Below, one piece after another: positions 21,196 through 30,969 of a stretch of DNA of 43,235 nt. This stretch comes from Patescibacteria group bacterium (GTDB lineage Bacteria > Patescibacteriota > Minisyncoccia > UBA6257 > 02-FULL-45-10c), in the NCBI GenBank assembly GCA_028865335.1, contig JAGWKK010000002.1, forward strand, positions 1-43,235, read 5' to 3'. The notes beneath the pieces were generated by a model. It was not told the DNA's origin. It saw only the letters and a program-made list of their open reading frames with translations, and did no database searches. Both the position numbers and the translations under genes were made by a program. Within the stretch, counting starts at the first letter, position 1. The number at the start of each line of letters is the position of its first letter.

Positions 21196-21966
21196 CTACC
21201 CCAAGTATCCCACCTGTTTCAGCCATTTCTCATTTTCCCATTCCCAGAGTCTCTTCGCGCCGAGGAAGGCCTGGAAGTCGTGCTTCCAGTCGGGGAATTC
21301 CTGCAGTTCAGTGACGCCGGTGAGTTCGGACCATTCGTGCTGATCCTGCGGACACATCGTCTTTTTCCCGCGGCGGATTTTGTTGCGGCCGCCTTTCGGG
21401 CGCATCGTCGCGCCACACTTGAGACAAGTGCGGACCTGATCGATCCGGAGAATCCAGCGGGTCTGCAGCTTGGGCAATTCGTCCAACAGAGCTTCTATAT
21501 ATGCGGCAGTCTGGAGGTTGTAGTCGCGATAGATCGCCTGAGAGGTCTTGATATCCAGGACGCCGAACTTGCCGTCCACCAGCGCCAGCGTATCGATCGT
21601 GCCCGCATACCGGTGTTCCGGATGGAAGATGCGCTTTTCCACGAACTTCGGGTCCACGCGGATTTCGCGGGTCTTCACGAAATCAAGAAATCCCTGCACG
21701 GCCGGTGCGATGGAAGCGGGGATATGCGGATGCTCGCCGACCATCAGTTTTTCCACGGTTTCGTGGATCAGCGTCCCTTCCCGCGCGGAATTTTCGGTGA
21801 TCGCTTTTGCGGCATTGTAACTCGCGGCCTCGCCATAGAACCGGTAGAGCGCCGGTTTGGATTTTATCTCGACTATTTTCGTGACGCGCGGATACCACTT
21901 GCCGTCGATGGCATATCCGGCCTGATCCTTGAATTCCTCGACATTGGAATAATCGAAAAGCGACAT
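21196..21966 (-). CDS. PD-(D/E)XK nuclease, RecB/lambda-exonuclease-like, with C-terminal zinc ribbon (256 aa)
   Basis: GTIDTLALVDGKFGVLDIKTS (D...DxK) followed by QTAAY (QxxxY); CLKCG...CPQDQH. ATG 21966 preferred; the 143-aa N-terminal extension of the listed ORF is rejected. Confidence 0.75.
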   Translation of the reverse strand: MSLFDYSNVEEFKDQAGYAIDGKWYPRVTKIVEIKSKPALYRFYGEAASYNAAKAITENSAREGTLIHETVEKLMVGEHPHIPASIAPAVQGFLDFVKTREIRVDPKFVEKRIFHPEHRYAGTIDTLALVDGKFGVLDIKTSQAIYRDYNLQTAAYIEALLDELPKLQTRWILRIDQVRTCLKCGATMRPKGGRNKIRRGKKTMCPQDQHEWSELTGVTELQEFPDWKHDFQAFLGAKRLWEWENEKWLKQVGYLG

Positions 21967-22029
21967 AGATGGATATATTCTTGCATGGTATCGGTTTTTT
22001 GGATAGAGTGAAGAGCGGATAGTGCGAGC

Positions 22030-22407
22030 GTGGAGAATACCGTGCTGACGAAACCCGAGAAGTCCTTCGTCCGGCTGCTCCGGGATGGAACGGCCCGGCA
22101 ATATCTGCGGTGGCAGAGGATCTCGCCGACGCATATCCAGGTGCACATTGACGACGTATCGGTTTCGATGGATCGTGTCGGTGAGATGCCGACGCTTTCG
22201 GTGGGATTGGAAAATACCGCACGCCACGATGTCAGGGATATGAGCCTCCAGAAAGCGCTGTTCTGGATCCACTTCTGGTCTACGGTCGATTCCACGAGCG
22301 CCTTCTGGTATCCGGATGCCTTTCCTCTCCAAAAACCGCGGCGATGGCAGCGTGCGCGCGGACGATTTCTCGCGCGGCTCACCTCGGCCGCACAACGACT
22401 CTTCTGA
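22030..22407 (+). CDS. possible hypothetical protein (GTG start, 125 aa), or a non-coding transcript
   Basis: A plus-strand terminator sits exactly at the ORF end; the composition is not convincingly coding. Confidence 0.3.
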   Translation: MENTVLTKPEKSFVRLLRDGTARQYLRWQRISPTHIQVHIDDVSVSMDRVGEMPTLSVGLENTARHDVRDMSLQKALFWIHFWSTVDSTSAFWYPDAFPLQKPRRWQRARGRFLARLTSAAQRLF

Positions 22408-22492: not shown

Positions 22493-22966
22493 ATGAAGAA
22501 GATCGCACTCGGCGTGCTCGTACTCGGCCTTGCGGGATGCATGGCGGACGTCCGTCAGGACGCGCATACCTACATCCTCAAGGAAGTTCCGGTGGTGATG
22601 ACCGGCGCGATGGACGGAAATTCATCGGCCTCGGGAAATCAGCTTGGACCGACTGTCGAGATGGCTCTGCTGGACCAAAGCCGGCCCGGGACGAAGCAGC
22701 TGACCGATCCGGAGGAGGACGTCTCGCTGCTCGCCTGCGCTTCGACGGTGCGCATCGAGATCGACCCCGCGCTCAGCGAATGGTTCAGCAACTACCAGTA
22801 TTCCGAACTGTTCAGTGCCGAGCGGGTGACGACCGACGCCACCTGGCCCCGCCGCTATTTCGCATCGGGAGCCGTGGTCATCAAAGTGGATGACACTCCC
22901 CGTAAACGCGAGATCGAGGATGCGCTCCGCATTCTGCGCAACCACTCGTGTCCCGGAAAGAACTGA
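22493..22966 (+). CDS. lipoprotein (157 aa)
   Basis: Signal peptide with lipobox LGLAGC; TTGACG-17-TAGGGT promoter upstream. Confidence 0.75.
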   Translation: MKKIALGVLVLGLAGCMADVRQDAHTYILKEVPVVMTGAMDGNSSASGNQLGPTVEMALLDQSRPGTKQLTDPEEDVSLLACASTVRIEIDPALSEWFSNYQYSELFSAERVTTDATWPRRYFASGAVVIKVDDTPRKREIEDALRILRNHSCPGKN

Positions 22967-23411: not shown

Positions 23412-24011
23412 ATGCACGTAATCGTCGTCGTTGGGAAACCGAGTAACGAAGATTCACGCAAGGATCGGTTTGAAATCGCTGCGACCAATACGATCCTTAA
23501 CCTCCGTATAGATTTCGATATGGCTCGGAAAGACGATCTTTCTTACGTCTGGGGACCTGCTTCGCGGGTACAGAAGCGCCTTGAAGCTATCTTCCTGGAG
23601 AAGCGCGACGAAGACATCTGCCTTTTCTATTTCGGCCATGGGGCTGAGTACGGATGGGCGATGCTAGGCGATCGACGCCCCGGCTCCGTCCTCGCGTACG
23701 AAGACCTCCGGCTGACGCTTGCGCAGCATTCCGGAAATCTTCTCTTTATCAACGCTCCGTGCTACGCCGGCGCCGCATCCGATGCGCTGGAGGGACATGG
23801 CGGAGCGCATTGTCTGATCGCTCTGGTCCCTCGCGATAAATGCGGCTATCCCGAAAACTTCATCCATTCCATATTCGGATCTTGGCGCGCTCGCCGCTTT
23901 TTCAATCCGCGAGATCCCTGTTTTGGGAATGTAGAAGACAATGCCCCTGTCGTCGAAGGCGATATCGAGTTGCAGCAGCTGATGTTCCCGAAAAAGGAGG
24001 CATTCGTATGA
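23412..24011 (+). CDS. minimal clan-CD (caspase/legumain-like) cysteine protease fold, paralog 1 (199 aa)
   Basis: ICLFYFGHGAEYG (His76) and LLFINAPCYAGA (Cys117) with 41-residue spacing, as in the clan-CD His-Cys dyad. Confidence 0.65.
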   Translation: MHVIVVVGKPSNEDSRKDRFEIAATNTILNLRIDFDMARKDDLSYVWGPASRVQKRLEAIFLEKRDEDICLFYFGHGAEYGWAMLGDRRPGSVLAYEDLRLTLAQHSGNLLFINAPCYAGAASDALEGHGGAHCLIALVPRDKCGYPENFIHSIFGSWRARRFFNPRDPCFGNVEDNAPVVEGDIELQQLMFPKKEAFV

Positions 24012-24232
24012 ACCGGAAAGAGCGCAAGAGCTACGTCGAGCTGACGCGATACCTGATTCTCATTGCTGCGACGGTCGCGTTCGCCGTAGCGACTTATCCG
24101 CTGCTCTATTATTCCGGTGCGCTGAAATTGATGAATGACATTTCAGTGGCGTTGACGATTTCGCTGCGCAACCTGATTGAACACCAGAATCCTACGATCA
24201 CCGTCCCGTATCCGAAGCAGCCGCGCCGGTAG
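24008..24232 (+). CDS. small membrane protein (74 aa), translationally coupled to the protease
   Basis: ATGA start/stop overlap with the upstream CDS; one clear TM (YLILIAATVAFAVATYPLLYY) and a second amphipathic segment. Confidence 0.55.
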   Translation: MNRKERKSYVELTRYLILIAATVAFAVATYPLLYYSGALKLMNDISVALTISLRNLIEHQNPTITVPYPKQPRR

Positions 24233-24335: not shown

Positions 24336-25385
24336 ATGGACCTGACCACGATCGCCATTTTCATACTGATCCTTATCGGCTTCGCCGTACTGTACGCCGC
24401 GATCAAGAATCAACCGCAGCCGGAGACAAAAAAAGATGAACAGTCGCTTCTGATGCTCCAACAACAGCTGCAGGATCTGCGCCGTACCTTGGATACGCAG
24501 CTCGGCGCCTCCACGCGCTCCATGCAGTCGCAGTTCAGCGAGAGCGCGAAAATCATCCGCGATGTCACCGAACGCCTCACGAAACTGGATGAGACCAACC
24601 GCCAGGTGGTCAGCTTCGCCGACCAGCTTCAGAATCTGCAGGACATCCTGAAGAATCCGAAACAGCGCGGCATCCTCGGCGAATATTATCTGGAGGAGAT
24701 CCTGAAGAACGTCCTGCCGCCGGGCCGCTATCAGATGCAATATCCGTTCAAGAACGGCGACATCGTAGATGCGGTCATTTTCGTGCAGGACAAAGTGATT
24801 CCGATCGATTCCAAGTTCAGCCTGGAAAATTACAACCGCCTTCTGGAAGCGCACGAAGAATCCGAACAGGCCGATCTGGAAAAAGCATTCAAGCAGGATC
24901 TCAAAAACCGCATCGATGAGACGGCGAAATATGTGAAGCCGGAAGAGGGGACGATGGACTTCGCGTTCATGTTCATCCCGGCGGAAGCGATTTACTACGA
25001 TCTGCTCGTCAACAAGATTGGCGCGGCGAAAACGAACACGCGCGACCTGATCCAGTACGCATTCAAGGACAAACATGTCATCATTGTTTCGCCGACGTCG
25101 TTCCTGGCGTATCTGCAGACCGTTCTCCAGGGATTGAAGGCGTTGCAGATTGAAGAATCCGCAAAGGAGATCCGTAAGCGGGTGGAGATGCTCGGCAAAC
25201 ACCTCGGCAGTTACGAGGATTACATGAAAAAGCTCGGCACCCACCTCGGCACTTCCATCAATATGTACAACAGCGCCTATAAGGAGCTCGGGAAGATCGA
25301 CAAGGACGTTCTGAAGATCACCGACTCGGCCATCGGCATCGAACCGGAATTGCTGGAACGACCTGAACTGACGGAAGTGGAATAG
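24336..25385 (+). CDS. rmuC: DNA recombination protein RmuC
   Basis: N-terminal TM, long coiled coil, and a RmuC C-terminal nuclease-like core (GILGEYYLEEIL..., FMFIPAEAIYYDLL). Confidence 0.88.
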   Translation: MDLTTIAIFILILIGFAVLYAAIKNQPQPETKKDEQSLLMLQQQLQDLRRTLDTQLGASTRSMQSQFSESAKIIRDVTERLTKLDETNRQVVSFADQLQNLQDILKNPKQRGILGEYYLEEILKNVLPPGRYQMQYPFKNGDIVDAVIFVQDKVIPIDSKFSLENYNRLLEAHEESEQADLEKAFKQDLKNRIDETAKYVKPEEGTMDFAFMFIPAEAIYYDLLVNKIGAAKTNTRDLIQYAFKDKHVIIVSPTSFLAYLQTVLQGLKALQIEESAKEIRKRVEMLGKHLGSYEDYMKKLGTHLGTSINMYNSAYKELGKIDKDVLKITDSAIGIEPELLERPELTEVE

Positions 25386-25410: not shown

Positions 25411-25466
25411 TTGACCGGCGCCTTATTTTTATTTACAGTAGTATCAGTTCTCAAAAATGCGAGGTG

Positions 25467-26039
25467 ATGATGAGCGAGCTTGAAAAGCAATCCGGACCTC
25501 TGATGAGCAGTGAGATATACGGAATTCTCGAAGTCATCGGCAAGAAAATACAAGCGGGTGAATTCGACGGCCAACTCGGCGGAGGATCGCCCCACGACTG
25601 GCAGATCCGTATAAGCGGCACCAAGAAGATAAAGTTCTCTTTCTTCTCGTACGACCGGTCGAACAGCGCCCTCGTCTTTCCGGTGCTCATATGCGGGCCT
25701 CTGGTCCCGATGATCGGGATGCTGACCTATAGCATAGCGCTTTCCTTTCTCGCATTTGTTGTCGGCATGGCGATGATATGGCTCGTTATACACTGGCTGG
25801 GAAACATATTCGGGAAAGACAAGCGCTATATGACCGGACGACTCACTGTCGCCAATGAATCATTGGTGATGGAATCCCGGTGCGCCGTAGGGTCTGACGG
25901 GAGGGTTTGGACCGAAAGCGGATATGCCGATCTCGCGCAACTGCAGCAGATGGTGATCGAGCGGATCAAGATGATCCATTCCGGCAGAGGCAATCTGCCG
26001 AAGATGAAAAAGTACCTCAACGATTCAGAAGGAGCGTAA
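25467..26039 (+). CDS. hypothetical 2-TM membrane protein (about 190 aa)
   Basis: GAGGTG before ATG; central hydrophobic pair (LVFPVLICGPLVPMIGML..., FLAFVVGMAMIWLVIHWL). Confidence 0.6.
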   Translation: MMSELEKQSGPLMSSEIYGILEVIGKKIQAGEFDGQLGGGSPHDWQIRISGTKKIKFSFFSYDRSNSALVFPVLICGPLVPMIGMLTYSIALSFLAFVVGMAMIWLVIHWLGNIFGKDKRYMTGRLTVANESLVMESRCAVGSDGRVWTESGYADLAQLQQMVIERIKMIHSGRGNLPKMKKYLNDSEGA

Positions 26040-26051
26040 GCTCCTTTTTTG
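26031..26051 (+). terminator. intrinsic terminator (stop codon in the loop)
   Basis: GGAGC-GTAA-GCTCC then TTTTTT. Confidence 0.65.
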
Positions 26052-26066
26052 TTTTATACTGACCGT

Positions 26067-26726
26067 ATGGAAAAACATGACGAGCTTTACCGGAAAAAAT
26101 GGCGGAAATTCCAGCAGCGGGCGTGGCTGTTCCGGTTCATTCCGTTCGTGGATTTCGTATTCGCCGCGGGATCGCTCGCGACCGGTAACGTTCATGAAGC
26201 GTCCGACTTCGATGTGATTGTCGGCGCACGACAGGGGAGAATTTTCACTGTCCGCTTTTTCTGCTTTCTTGTTTTCAAGCCGCTTGGCCTCTGGGCGCGC
26301 CATCCCGATCACTCAAAAGATCGCATCTGCTTCAATCATTTCGTGACTCCGTACGGCTACCGCCTCCGTCCGCCGCATAACGCCTATTGGCAGAACTTGT
26401 ATGCGTCTTTGATTCCGGTCTACGGCAATCCGCGGATCATGCAGCGGTTCTGGCGCGCGAACCGGGGATGGATGAAGGGACCGAAACTCTATGAACCGAT
26501 GTCGGACAAACCGCTCGGCCGGAAATCATGGATTGCGAAACTGGGCGAGGCGATGCTTGCCGGCAGGTTTGGTACCTGGGTTGAGCTCAAGCTGAAAAAT
26601 CTGCAGTTGGAAACCATCGCTTCCGATCGGAATCATCAGGAAGAATACAAACCGCGGATCATCATCAGCGATGACGAATTGGAGTTCCATCCGCATACGA
26701 AACGAATTGAGGAATACAGCGCGTAG
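26067..26726 (+). CDS. nucleotidyltransferase-fold (Pol-beta superfamily-like) protein (219 aa)
   Basis: AAGSLATGNVHEASDFDVIV fits the GS-x(n)-DxD minimal NTase motif; ATG 26067 preferred over TTG 26049. Confidence 0.6.
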   Translation: MEKHDELYRKKWRKFQQRAWLFRFIPFVDFVFAAGSLATGNVHEASDFDVIVGARQGRIFTVRFFCFLVFKPLGLWARHPDHSKDRICFNHFVTPYGYRLRPPHNAYWQNLYASLIPVYGNPRIMQRFWRANRGWMKGPKLYEPMSDKPLGRKSWIAKLGEAMLAGRFGTWVELKLKNLQLETIASDRNHQEEYKPRIIISDDELEFHPHTKRIEEYSA

Positions 26727-26978
26727 TCCAAAGTCCATAAGGTCGAAGGTCCATAAGGTCCGTCAGATTTCATGTTTCAGGTGTCAGGTGGCAAGTGTCA
26801 TGAGTTTTAATTCCTAATTCCTAATTCCTAATTCCTAATTCCTGCATTTATTCGTGGTGTTCGTATAACCCATGCATTCTGTTCGTATTAGACTGTTCGT
26901 AGTGTTCGTGTGGCCATTCTTATTCGCATTAAACCCAATTACTAATGACCAATGCCTGATGACTGATTGCGTAATCTT
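26727..26978. repeat. about 36 in-phase degenerate heptamers; right inverted arm
   Basis: ttcatgt|ttcaggt|gtcaggt|ggcaagt|gtcatga|gttttaa|ttcctaa x4|...|gttcgta|ttagact|gttcgta|...|aatgacc|aatgcct|gatgact. Confidence 0.8.
26808..26842. repeat. perfect tandem repeat (TAATTCC)x5
   Basis: Five exact 7-nt units counted directly. Confidence 0.95.
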
Positions 26979-26981
26979 TCC

Positions 26982-27010
26982 TTGACTAATTCTACTTATT
27001 GCAGTAAGAT
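26982..27010 (+). promoter_or_regulatory. sigma70-like promoter for ORF 27065..27415
   Basis: TTGACT 26982-26987, 17-nt spacer, TAAGAT 27005-27010. Confidence 0.5.
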
Positions 27011-27064: not shown

Positions 27065-27415
27065 ATGTGGAGCGCAATACTCGCTCTTCTGACTACGGTC
27101 GCGATCACGATGCTTGCAACTCTTTATATCAATGAAGGCGAGGTCTTTCTCGGAGTTCTGTACGCCGCTTTCGCCGTCACCGTTGGATGCAGTGCGCTTA
27201 CCATAGCGCGACGCGCAGGAGCCGGCCATCCCGACACCGACTTGCTGCCTCCGGGCATCTACTCCGTCCTCTCGTCGGTGAAAACAAAAAACGGGTACGC
27301 CGTTGTCACCCGCATGGATTCCGGCAACGGAAGCGTGCACATGTACCTGCTCAAGACGGATCCACCGAAGCACCTCAAGTCCACCGAGTACGGATTGATC
27401 CGGCCGTATCCGTGA
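27065..27415 (+). CDS. small 2-TM membrane protein (116 aa)
   Basis: GAGGAGG before ATG; two N-terminal TM helices; own terminator. Confidence 0.65.
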   Translation: MWSAILALLTTVAITMLATLYINEGEVFLGVLYAAFAVTVGCSALTIARRAGAGHPDTDLLPPGIYSVLSSVKTKNGYAVVTRMDSGNGSVHMYLLKTDPPKHLKSTEYGLIRPYP

Positions 27416-27426
27416 AGCGGCACACG

Positions 27427-27461
27427 TCCCCCGACAGATCGTATCGTCGGGGGATTTTTTT
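27427..27461 (+). terminator. intrinsic terminator
   Basis: TCCCCCGAC...GTCGGGGGA then TTTTTTT. Confidence 0.7.
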
Positions 27462-27538
27462 ATTGAATCAACTTCTGTCGCCTTGTGATAAATACCGACC
27501 TTCTCTATACTGAAGACAGATCCGTGAAATGAGGTTCC

Positions 27539-27889
27539 GTGGCGAAACAGGCGAACCCGTGGGAAGATCTCGCGGAAGAGGCACTGGTGGAGCTCGTTGC
27601 CGAGGGTGCACTCAAGGGATTTCTGCGCAACAGGCAGAGCGACTGGCTCGACTGCGAAGGAATCGATTTTCTCCTTTTTCTGAACAACGGGTCCTCGCTC
27701 ACCATCCAGGTGAAAAGCGCGCACGGCAATCTGAAACACAAGATAAAGGAACACCTCCGCAAGCATCCGTTTGTCAGATCGATCCTGTTCGTCCTCCTTC
27801 CGGAACAACCTGAAAACTCAGTCGAGCGGCAGAAGGCCATCGCACTGGTCAAGAAAGACATTTCGCGCCTCATCGCTCCTTACCGCTAA
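27539..27889 (+). CDS. small Mrr-cat-like PD-(D/E)XK-fold protein (116 aa, GTG start)
   Basis: DCEGIDFLLFLNNGSSLTIQVKS resembles the Mrr-type GIDG...IQ(A/C)K core; own promoter and terminator. Confidence 0.5.
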   Translation: MAKQANPWEDLAEEALVELVAEGALKGFLRNRQSDWLDCEGIDFLLFLNNGSSLTIQVKSAHGNLKHKIKEHLRKHPFVRSILFVLLPEQPENSVERQKAIALVKKDISRLIAPYR

Positions 27890-27901
27890 GGAGCTTTTTT
27901 A
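27875..27901 (+). terminator. intrinsic terminator
   Basis: GCTCCTTA-CCGC-TAAGGAGC then TTTTTT. Confidence 0.7.
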
Positions 27902-27973
27902 TTTGCTTTTATCTTTGACTGAGAAGGCGCTGCTGGTGTAGGCTCAGAACAGATCACCGACAAGAGGAAACCG

Positions 27974-28753
27974 ATGAAAGCGATCCTGCTGCTATACGAC
28001 GAGGCCGAATCCCGCATCGCCGTTGAGGCAGTGCGCGGACAGAAGGAAAAGCAGAAAGTCGATTACCGATGCACCTGCGTCCGCAATGCCACGCTGGAAA
28101 AAGCGCGGCGGTTGCTTCGCTACCTCCGTGTGCCGTGTCGGATGAAACCGGACGAGACCGCCATTCTGACCTCCACGCATTTCGTCGCGGGCTCGGACAT
28201 CCAGCGGGCGATTCACGACGCGATCAGGCGTTTCGCCGATGACGACATTCTTCTGTTCTACTCAGGCCACGGCGGAGAACAAAGTTGGGATCTGGGTGAA
28301 CGGATGAACACTCGGAAATTCGTGCTCTTCAAGGAGCTCGCAGGCATGATCGCGATGAGTGCCCGGAAGCATGTCGGAATCATCGCCGATTGCTGTCACA
28401 CACTTGCCCTTGACCGCTATCTTGCCGATCTGAGAAAACTGGACGGCCGGTATCTCCTGATCGGATCAAGCCAGGCGGATCGTGTCGGCAGCGAGAACGT
28501 CTCCCTGGCCCATCCGATATGCGACGCGTGGGAGTTCCGGCAGATGGCGGATATCCGCGTCGGGAAGATCGAGAAACTCCAACACGGAACCGTCATGGAC
28601 ATTCCGTTCAATGCTCCGTACATATCCGGCGGAAATCCCGACTGCAAATGCGGAGAGGAGATCGTCGGCGGACTGACGTATCTTCCGTATGAACGCCCTC
28701 CGCTCCGCCGCGGAAGCAACCTCGATCATCTGTTCTTTCCTCCCGAGCCCTAA
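27974..28753 (+). CDS. minimal clan-CD (caspase/legumain-like) cysteine protease fold, paralog 2 (259 aa)
   Basis: ILLFYSGHGGEQ (His99) and VGIIADCCHT (Cys140/141) with the same spacing as paralog 1; shared C-terminal L..L(M/F)FP motif. Confidence 0.65.
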   Translation: MKAILLLYDEAESRIAVEAVRGQKEKQKVDYRCTCVRNATLEKARRLLRYLRVPCRMKPDETAILTSTHFVAGSDIQRAIHDAIRRFADDDILLFYSGHGGEQSWDLGERMNTRKFVLFKELAGMIAMSARKHVGIIADCCHTLALDRYLADLRKLDGRYLLIGSSQADRVGSENVSLAHPICDAWEFRQMADIRVGKIEKLQHGTVMDIPFNAPYISGGNPDCKCGEEIVGGLTYLPYERPPLRRGSNLDHLFFPPEP

Positions 28754-28765
28754 GGGGCTCTTTTT
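28745..28765 (+). terminator. intrinsic terminator
   Basis: GAGCCC-TAAG-GGGCTC then TTTTT. Confidence 0.6.
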
Positions 28766-28832
28766 GTTTTCTTCCCGGCGCCGGTAGGCAGAGCTATGGA
28801 GAATATTATCGAAGTCCGACTTCACTATTCAG

Positions 28833-28854
28833 GTGCTATTCCATGGGATAGCAC
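28833..28854. promoter_or_regulatory. palindromic operator-like site upstream of the groES promoter
   Basis: GTGCTAT-N8-ATAGCAC; the arms resemble CIRCE half-sites but in swapped order. Confidence 0.3.
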
Positions 28855-28881: not shown

Positions 28882-28910
28882 TTGACGGCGTCGGACTCGT
28901 GACTTAAAAT
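28882..28910 (+). promoter_or_regulatory. groESL promoter
   Basis: TTGACG 28882-28887, 17-nt spacer, TAAAAT 28905-28910. Confidence 0.5.
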
Positions 28911-28941: not shown

Positions 28942-29232
28942 ATGAACTTACAACCATTAAACGATCATATTTTTCTTGAGCCGGTCGAGGAAGTGAAAAC
29001 AACCAAGTCGGGCATCGTCCTGCCGGAAACCTCCGAAAAGGAGAAGCCGATGACGGGCATGGTCGTCGCCGTCGGTCCGGGCAAACTGGATGACGCCGGC
29101 AAACGCGTTCCGATGTCGGTGAAAGTCGGCGACAAGGTCCTGTTCAAAAAATACGGTCCTGACGAAATCGAAATGGACGGCAAGAAATATCTGGTCGGCG
29201 AAGAAAGCGACATATTGGCAATCATTCAGTAG
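28942..29232 (+). CDS. groES: co-chaperonin GroES
   Basis: LQPLNDHIFLEPVEE...GIVLPETS...GKLDDAG typical GroES. Confidence 0.97.
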   Translation: MNLQPLNDHIFLEPVEEVKTTKSGIVLPETSEKEKPMTGMVVAVGPGKLDDAGKRVPMSVKVGDKVLFKKYGPDEIEMDGKKYLVGEESDILAIIQ

Positions 29233-29322
29233 CGTTCGAGCTTTTTCAAGTTCAAATTGTTCTAGCTGAACAAGCGGTGCGATTGAACAACTACAACATT
29301 TATCATTAGAACATTTTATCTT
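29233..29322. repeat. groES-groEL spacer built from gttcta/tagaac-type words (forward half then reverse half)
   Basis: Shares tagcgttc, ttgttctagc, caactacaaca and atcattagaaca with the 37261-37332 and 37714-37777 tracts. Confidence 0.55.

Positions 29323-30969
<1,647 letters not shown>

Follow-up and report, generated by a model that had tools for sequence, protein, structure and literature searches.

A family of putative minimal clan CD peptidases in a Patescibacteria contig, with one member in a variable slot beside groES

The contig JAGWKK010000002.1 of a Patescibacteria group bacterium (assembly GCA_028865335.1), analysed here from position 1 to 43,235 (the window, 43,235 nucleotides), carries two genes, p1 and p2, whose products are predicted to adopt a caspase fold. 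The reading that we favour, and hold to be moderately probable, is that p2, a paralog of p1, evolves fast, is transcribed on its own and belongs with p1 to an undescribed family of minimal clan CD peptidases, and that the two-transmembrane (2-TM) gene upstream of it is an unrelated ORFan. A first-pass annotation, made from the sequence alone, had likewise called p2 a second clan CD protease, and had seen a small membrane protein at each protease locus, the two forming a duplicated and diverging module. Its protease part is borne out below; its module part is not. The open reading frames (ORFs) needed first are the following.

23412..24011, + strand: p1, paralog of p2, 199 amino acids (aa), H76/C117; orthologs kept in related genomes (BLASTP, hhalign, synteny)
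27065..27415, + strand: 2-TM protein, 116 aa, contig-specific ORFan with a GGAGGA ribosome-binding site (clustering, synteny)
27539..27889, + strand: putative minimal PD-(D/E)XK (DUF4365/Mrr-like) protein, 116 aa, GTG start, hereafter the 116-aa protein (sub-threshold profiles, conserved residues)
27974..28753, + strand: p2, predicted clan CD (caspase-fold) cysteine peptidase, 259 aa (ORF list, profiles, AlphaFold2 model)

The last three had been called by the first-pass annotation, and all three are confirmed with these boundaries.

Fold, dyad and paralogy of the two proteases

The AlphaFold2 (AF2) model of p2 has a predicted local distance difference test score (pLDDT) of 93.4 and a predicted template modelling score (pTM) of 0.90, and its top 50 Foldseek matches in the PDB all belong to clan CD, including metacaspase 9, PIGK, legumain, Raptor, SAVED-CHAT and caspases (probability 1.00, E ~1e-4, TM-scores 0.40-0.45). 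The first ten ranks in BFVD are taken by caspases/metacaspases of giant viruses and by a clostripain, and at the level of sequence PDB metacaspases match at E=0.002. The catalytic layout described earlier is present as well: ILLFYSGHG supplies His99 and VGIIADCCHT supplies Cys140/141, with a His-to-Cys distance of 42 residues in p2 and 41 in p1. In the model, H99-G100 follow the strand 92-97 and C141 follows the strand 134-139. An alignment of 16 p2-like sequences leaves D9, E12, C33, H99, G100, C141, W186, G247 and D251 invariant and C224 nearly so, while 15 p1-like sequences share H76, G77 and C117. Because C140 varies across the p2-like set whereas C141 is fixed, C141 would be the nucleophile of p2. 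Profiles, model and structural matches agree, and on these grounds we regard the caspase/hemoglobinase (clan CD) fold with an intact His/Cys dyad as established. A Kyte-Doolittle scan found no transmembrane (TM) segments in p1, p2 or the 27539 product, and p2 is probably an active cytoplasmic cysteine endopeptidase using H99/C141.

Assignment to a particular peptidase family is a different matter. Peptidase_C14 (PF00656) scores 20.4 bits on p2, below its cut-off of 21.4, and has no match in p1 in the Pfam scan. Among the 16 p2-like members, sub-threshold Pfam matches were found to Peptidase_C14 (9/16, best E=4.7e-5), Raptor_N (7/16) and Peptidase_C13 (5/16), and the p1-like set matches C25, C14, C13 and Raptor_N weakly. 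Membership of C14 is therefore not established, given scores under the threshold and similarly weak matches to C13, C25 and Raptor_N. Models of caspases from conflict systems also give weak matches (PADLOC 'caspase', E=2e-4 for p2; NCBIfam caspase_w_EACC1, E=6e-5).

The family was revealed by an exhaustive profile search alone, run over 1.84 billion representatives (clusters at 50% identity); word-indexed searches returned one homolog for p2, none for p1 and two for the 116-aa protein. At E<=1e-3 this search recovered 291 representatives, 18 of which reach E<=1e-30. The family comprises at least 291 such clusters, of two kinds: p2-like members are 243-287 aa long, and the p1-like ones, which are more numerous, have about 200 aa. 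Judged by sequence, p1 and p2 belong to an undescribed family of minimal, single-domain clan CD peptidases of 190-290 aa, which appears to be concentrated in groundwater Patescibacteria-type genomes. Our literature search found no paper on caspase homologs of the Candidate Phyla Radiation/Patescibacteria.

The paralogy of p1 and p2, earlier argued from short motifs, is supported both pairwise (BLASTP E=1e-7, 25% identity over 150 aa) and by profile, where hhalign of the two subfamily alignments gives a probability of 99.9% and E=4.7e-36. Since this alignment covers 198 columns, running end to end from residue 1, the similarity is not limited to the motifs; the shared C-terminal motif G..L(D/Q)xLxFP, which in p2 reads PLRRGSNLDHLFFP, lies inside it. 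This similarity goes far beyond chance, so that p1 and p2 are true paralogs, and neither a third paralog nor a second DUF4365-like gene was found in the window.

The same alignment corrects the domain layout. An N-terminal extension of 80 residues had been ascribed to p2, and there is none: the two proteins align from residue 1 on, through strand beta1. What makes p2 longer is instead a hairpin insert of about 20 residues after beta1 (His99 versus His76) and a C-terminal insert of about 35 residues. The Cys-rich segment PDCKCGEE noticed earlier is a real part of p2, and its CxC (C224-x-C226, in the C-terminal insert) is conserved in the subfamily together with a second CxC, C33-x-C35, at which the hairpin insert ends. 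Since the two distant CxC pairs are co-conserved, their pattern suggests that they would form a four-ligand structural metal (Zn) site. The invariant D9 and E12 stand directly after beta1, which we take to be the position of the S1-pocket residues of metacaspases; by that analogy, p2 is predicted to cleave after Arg/Lys.

How then does this family compare with known clan CD proteins? Metacaspases and orthocaspases (C14) are the best matches in both sequence and structure, and share with it the caspase-hemoglobinase fold, a His-Gly after beta3, a Cys after beta4, and acidic residues after beta1 that suggest a basic P1 specificity. However, the p1/p2 family is smaller (190-290 aa, single domain), has no accessory domains and stays below the Pfam gathering cut-off, and the p2 subfamily adds the CxC...CxC pairs and a conserved C-terminal (R/W)GxxLDxLxFP tail. 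Legumain and PIGK (C13) and the caspase-like domain of Raptor resemble p2 in Foldseek (E ~1e-4, TM-scores 0.42-0.45) and in sub-threshold Pfam matches; unlike legumain, p2 has no prodomain, LSAM domain or TM segment, and unlike in Raptor, its dyad is intact. With CHAT/SAVED-CHAT and EACC1-associated caspases, p2 has in common the caspase fold, the weak model matches and a gene that adjoins one for a nuclease-like protein, but it lacks a sensor domain (SAVED, TPR, NTPase or EACC1), and its locus consists of separate transcription units with housekeeping flanks.

The p2 slot, its transcription and its evolution

Around the two proteases, the window carries the following genes.

21196-22395, - strand: Cas4-like PD-(D/E)XK protein, divergent from p1, that ends in a Zn-ribbon-like segment (CxxC...C)
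24008..24232, + strand: single-pass TM protein, 74 aa, overlapping the p1 stop codon by 4 bp (Kyte-Doolittle, synteny)
24336..25385, + strand: RmuC, with an N-terminal hydrophobic TM-like segment (by eye); conserved downstream neighbour of p1-like genes
26049..26726, + strand: nucleotidyltransferase-like (NTase-like) protein, Pol-beta-type, 225 aa, GS...DFD; conserved upstream neighbour of the 116-aa gene
28942..30969, + strand: groES-groEL, which bounds the p2 slot downstream and is conserved there

Two metagenome-assembled genomes (MAGs) without p2 show the same block: a Cas4-like gene on the minus strand, a p1 ortholog, a TM gene of 58-61 aa, RmuC, the NTase-like gene, the 116-aa gene and groES-groEL, with genes for dCMP deaminase and thyX beyond. 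At the p2-bearing loci, the NTase-like and 116-aa genes are followed by a single p2-like gene or a pair of them, and then by groES-groEL. The gene p2 sits in a variable slot between the conserved 116-aa gene and groES. The number of copies in this slot ranges from two (a and b, in L004 and L005) to one (a in L011; b in the window and L007) to none (L002 and L003). The letters refer to a neighbour-joining tree of the p2-like proteins (no bootstrap), in which an 'a' clade is nuclease-proximal and a 'b' clade, with p2 of the window, is groES-proximal, so that clades match gene positions. Because of this match, and because copies vary between 0, 1 and 2, an old tandem duplication would have given rise to the 'a' and 'b' copies, followed by differential loss, with the window retaining 'b' only. 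Distant family members have no 116-aa or TM/RmuC-type neighbours, but again occur as tandem pairs. In L016 (276-1000), a p2-like gene is split over two frames, possibly by a frameshift, as a pseudogene or through an assembly error.

While GroEL and RmuC of the related loci are 78-85% and 78-87% identical to those of the window, p1 reaches only 34-40% and p2 29-39%. By the GroEL values, the related loci all come from one Patescibacteria-type clade. The NTase-like protein has 225-238 aa across relatives (NTP_transf_2 E=0.004) and is always found between RmuC and the 116-aa gene; given that in relatives only 36-60 bp separate the last two genes before the slot, the NTase-like gene could belong with the 116-aa gene. 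The Cas4-like protein shares 73% identity with its positional counterpart in L002 and occurs in L031 as well, where the gene is interrupted by a run of N; PADLOC Cas4 matches it at E=7e-4, and no CRISPR context was seen around the gene.

The genes of the p2 region had been described as monocistronic, and the signals in the sequence agree with this.

26982-27010, 27483-27511 and 28882-28910: promoter-like sites of the 2-TM gene, the 116-aa gene and groES
27428..27461, + strand: terminator of the 2-TM gene, a hairpin (CCCCCGAC...GTCGGGGG) followed by a T-run (sequence scan)
27875..27904, + strand: terminator of the 116-aa gene, hairpin and T-run; the same one is found in relatives without p2
27915..27944, + strand: weak promoter-like site of p2, TTGACT, an 18-nt spacer and TAGGCT (by eye, not in the scan list)
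28745..28770, + strand: terminator of p2, hairpin and T-run, separating p2 from the groES promoter-like site

A GC-rich hairpin with a T-run thus follows each of the three genes, and promoter-like sites precede the 2-TM and 116-aa genes. Furthermore, every locus examined has a GC hairpin, a T-run and a promoter-like site in the gap that separates the 116-aa gene from the p2-like gene, terminators stand between all genes in all loci, and sites equivalent to that of p2 (TTTACA...TATTAT) precede the p2-like genes in L005, L007 and L011. It is reasonable, on these signals, to regard the genes as monocistronic and p2 as independently transcribed. Co-transcription of p2 with groES is rejected, given the terminator after p2 and the promoter-like site that groES has of its own. 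Upstream of groES, CIRCE-like inverted repeats overlap the -35 box in relatives, for example TAGCACTCTTGACAGGAGACTGCTAA in L014 (~1020-1050) and GTCACTCTTGACGAAAGAGTGAC in L005 (~2805-2830) and L011 (~1095-1120); the window has a different palindrome, GTGCTATTCCATGGGATAGCAC (28833-28854), about 30 bp upstream of the groES promoter-like site.

Several points weigh against our reading of p2 as an independent peptidase and should be taken into account. All Pfam and NCBIfam scores are under the curated cut-offs (20.4 versus 21.4 bits for C14), and the TM-scores of the model to solved structures (0.40-0.45) are modest. The S1 pocket and the Cys4 site are predictions, as is the peptidase role of p2. 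Lastly, wherever a related locus extends far enough upstream (8 of 8), a 116-aa-type gene adjoins the p2-like gene, even in L015 with its different downstream DNA, which could mean that the two are functionally coupled.

What this amounts to at present is a new family, within a known superfamily, whose genes lie in a block of conserved synteny; a new system has not thereby been demonstrated. The family is nonetheless of considerable size, its members (190-290 aa) are the smallest proteins with a caspase fold seen to date, and no Pfam or NCBIfam model captures it. Reduced genomes such as these have little accessory room, yet the proteases outpace the neighbouring genes in evolution by a factor of 3-4 and undergo tandem duplication and repeated loss; fast evolution with duplication and loss is typical of genes for conflict or host interaction. 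The proteases are therefore candidates for understanding how proteolysis or cell death is controlled in episymbiotic bacteria, and their recurring PD-(D/E)XK-type neighbours, the 116-aa gene for p2 and RmuC for p1, give a concrete hypothesis.

The 116-aa protein and other readings of the proteases

The 116-aa protein had been likened to the Mrr/PD-(D/E)XK core, a likeness for which the evidence is weak but consistent: it holds for the motif, agrees with a model of low confidence and falls short in the profile scores. Its family conserves E9/E13/E14, D38/E40/D43, Q57-V-K59, K68 and H72; E9, E13, E14, D38, E40, D43, Q57 and K59 are invariant in five sequences (43-71% identity), and Q57 and K59 in 7/7. 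This E..D..QxK pattern is accompanied by DUF4365 as the sole recurrent Pfam match, found in 5/7 members and sub-threshold in each (E=0.059 for the window protein; E=3e-4 and 21.3 bits for the best relative, against a cut-off of 24.3). An AF2 model of low confidence (three sequences, pLDDT 60.6) places helix 7-21, strands 27-31, 44-49 and 54-59, helix 65-75 and strand 81-86, which is the alpha-beta-beta-beta-alpha-beta order expected for a PD-(D/E)XK core. Foldseek of this model gave nothing at E<=1e-3 (noise such as D-Ala-D-Ala ligase and CutA), a PDB sequence profile search gave nothing relevant, NCBIfam added nothing, and PADLOC produced only chance-level matches (E=0.014 and 0.02, one member each).

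In SPARDA, the collateral nuclease that acts as effector is a DUF4365 domain, for which a QxK active site, Q62/K64, has been proposed in TmuRE (PMC10810196). The 116-aa protein shares with SPARDA DREN (DUF4365)/Mrr_cat the GIDF...QVK signature, with Q57/K59 near the positions of Q62/K64 in TmuRE (PMC10810196), an acidic residue in helix 1 and, as far as its low-confidence model goes, the order of elements. Unlike them, it stands alone at 112-116 aa, without APAZ or another partner domain, and its family matches DUF4365/Mrr_cat only under the cut-off and with no significant structural match. From conserved residues and predicted topology, it is likely a minimal DUF4365/Mrr-type PD-(D/E)XK protein. 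Two close homologs (71% and 61% identity) were found, one of them in a MAG, and a scan of contigs with the 116-aa profile revealed no genome beyond one already known. A longer variant of about 200 aa, with a helical insert of about 90 residues and the core GKDF...IQ(I/V)K kept, precedes p2-like genes in L004 (563-1219) and L015 (175-804).

Do the 116-aa protein and p2 then form a system? One may suppose that the DUF4365-like nuclease and p2, possibly with the NTase-like gene, make up a conflict module (defence, abortive infection or toxin-antitoxin-like), in which the protease activates or restrains the nuclease. Such a module would account for a 116-aa-type gene standing directly before a p2-like one, both in the window and in 8/8 related loci with enough upstream DNA (L001, L005/L013, L007/L008, L011 and L017, with L004 and L015 carrying the ~200-aa variant and L036 probably included), and for L015 keeping the pair although its downstream gene is not groES. 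It would also suit the known part of DUF4365 in defence, as the collateral effector of SPARDA with a QxK active site (PMC10810196), the far faster evolution of the proteases than of their neighbours, their variable copy number, and the weak matches to PADLOC 'caspase' (E=2e-4) and NCBIfam caspase_w_EACC1 (E=6e-5). However, strong terminators part the two genes at every locus, with no signs of co-transcription or coupling. Moreover, the 116-aa gene is kept with all its motif residues, at 61-70% identity, in two genomes without p2; it belongs to the core genes of this clade and does not depend on p2. The loci all stem from a single clade (GroEL 78-85% identical), so that the adjacency may be simply inherited, and distant family members have no 116-aa neighbour. 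PADLOC lends no support to the 116-aa family and has no matches for p1, the 2-TM or the NTase-like protein, its sole match to p2 being the generic 'caspase' just mentioned; the flanks are housekeeping genes (groESL, RmuC, thyX, L27), and homologs in phages, plasmids or IMG/VR were not found. On balance we consider such a module possible but unlikely, and a protease-nuclease system is unproven. Its most specific form, a hitherto unrecognised miniature conflict or cell-death module beside groESL in ultra-small Patescibacteria, in which one of protease and nuclease gates the other, with p1 paired in turn with the membrane-anchored, PD-(D/E)XK-family RmuC, is in our estimate distinctly unlikely. 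An origin in mobile elements was rejected as well, with no tblastn matches in phages or plasmids and no relatives in IMG/VR.

We give still less credence to p1 and p2 being non-hydrolytic, that is, transpeptidases or ligases as in PIGK/GPI-transamidase and the plant asparaginyl ligases, or scaffolds as in the N-terminal domain of Raptor and the pseudo-orthocaspases. PIGK, peptide asparaginyl ligases and Raptor are indeed among the best structural matches, Raptor_N matches 7/16 members, and the partner of p1 would anchor it to the membrane, an arrangement also found in GPI-transamidase. Nevertheless, the invariant His-Gly and Cys speak against a pseudo-enzyme, Foldseek cannot tell a ligase from a protease and scores metacaspases equally well, and among the nearby genes none stood out as a candidate for an acceptor or substrate.

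Small membrane proteins and window-only ORFans

That a small membrane protein accompanies the protease at both loci is true of p1 and not of p2. The TM gene of p1 overlaps its stop codon by 4 bp, so that the two are translationally coupled, unlike the 116-aa gene and p2; L002 and L003 keep it beside p1, and in P0030 it forms a fusion with the protease. The p1-like genes are linked to RmuC in L031 and L032 as well. In L031, a 238-aa lipoprotein-like protein with a HEVCH zincin-type motif (2039-2755) is encoded between the p1-TM fusion gene and RmuC.

The 2-TM call for the 27065 product is upheld, with hydrophobic segments at residues 4-22 and 27-45 (Kyte-Doolittle). In the window, some 560 bp separate its gene from p2, which lies downstream. 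The protein forms a singleton cluster, is not similar to the TM partner of p1, and has no homolog in any related locus fetched. Because it is a singleton without homologs in related loci, and because relatives have no 2-TM gene in their gap of only 36-60 bp between the NTase-like and 116-aa genes, the 2-TM gene is a contig-specific ORFan insertion and not a partner of p2. The duplication involved the protease gene alone. The module reading, in which both proteases would have a small membrane protein as working partner and the whole set was duplicated before diverging, draws on the conserved and coupled (in P0030, fused) partner of p1 and on the 2-TM gene upstream of p2, but is very improbable, given the singleton status of the 2-TM protein, the differences in build (two TM segments, upstream, own terminator, versus one TM segment, downstream, overlapping), and two more membrane or lipoprotein ORFans confined to the window (22493-22966 and 25464-26039), which make a nearby TM gene unsurprising.

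These two ORFans, also in the conserved block, encode a lipoprotein-like protein of 157 aa (22493-22966) and a protein of 191 aa with two TM segments (25464-26039); each has its own terminator and no homolog in related loci. Upstream of the 2-TM ORFan, positions 26733-26843 hold adjoining tandem arrays of GTCCATAAG (x3.4), GTCAGGT (x5.6) and TAATTCC (x5.1, perfect), followed by several TGTTCGTA-like repeats. Because this region is missing in relatives, where 36-60 bp take its place, it may mark the insertion that brought the 2-TM gene.

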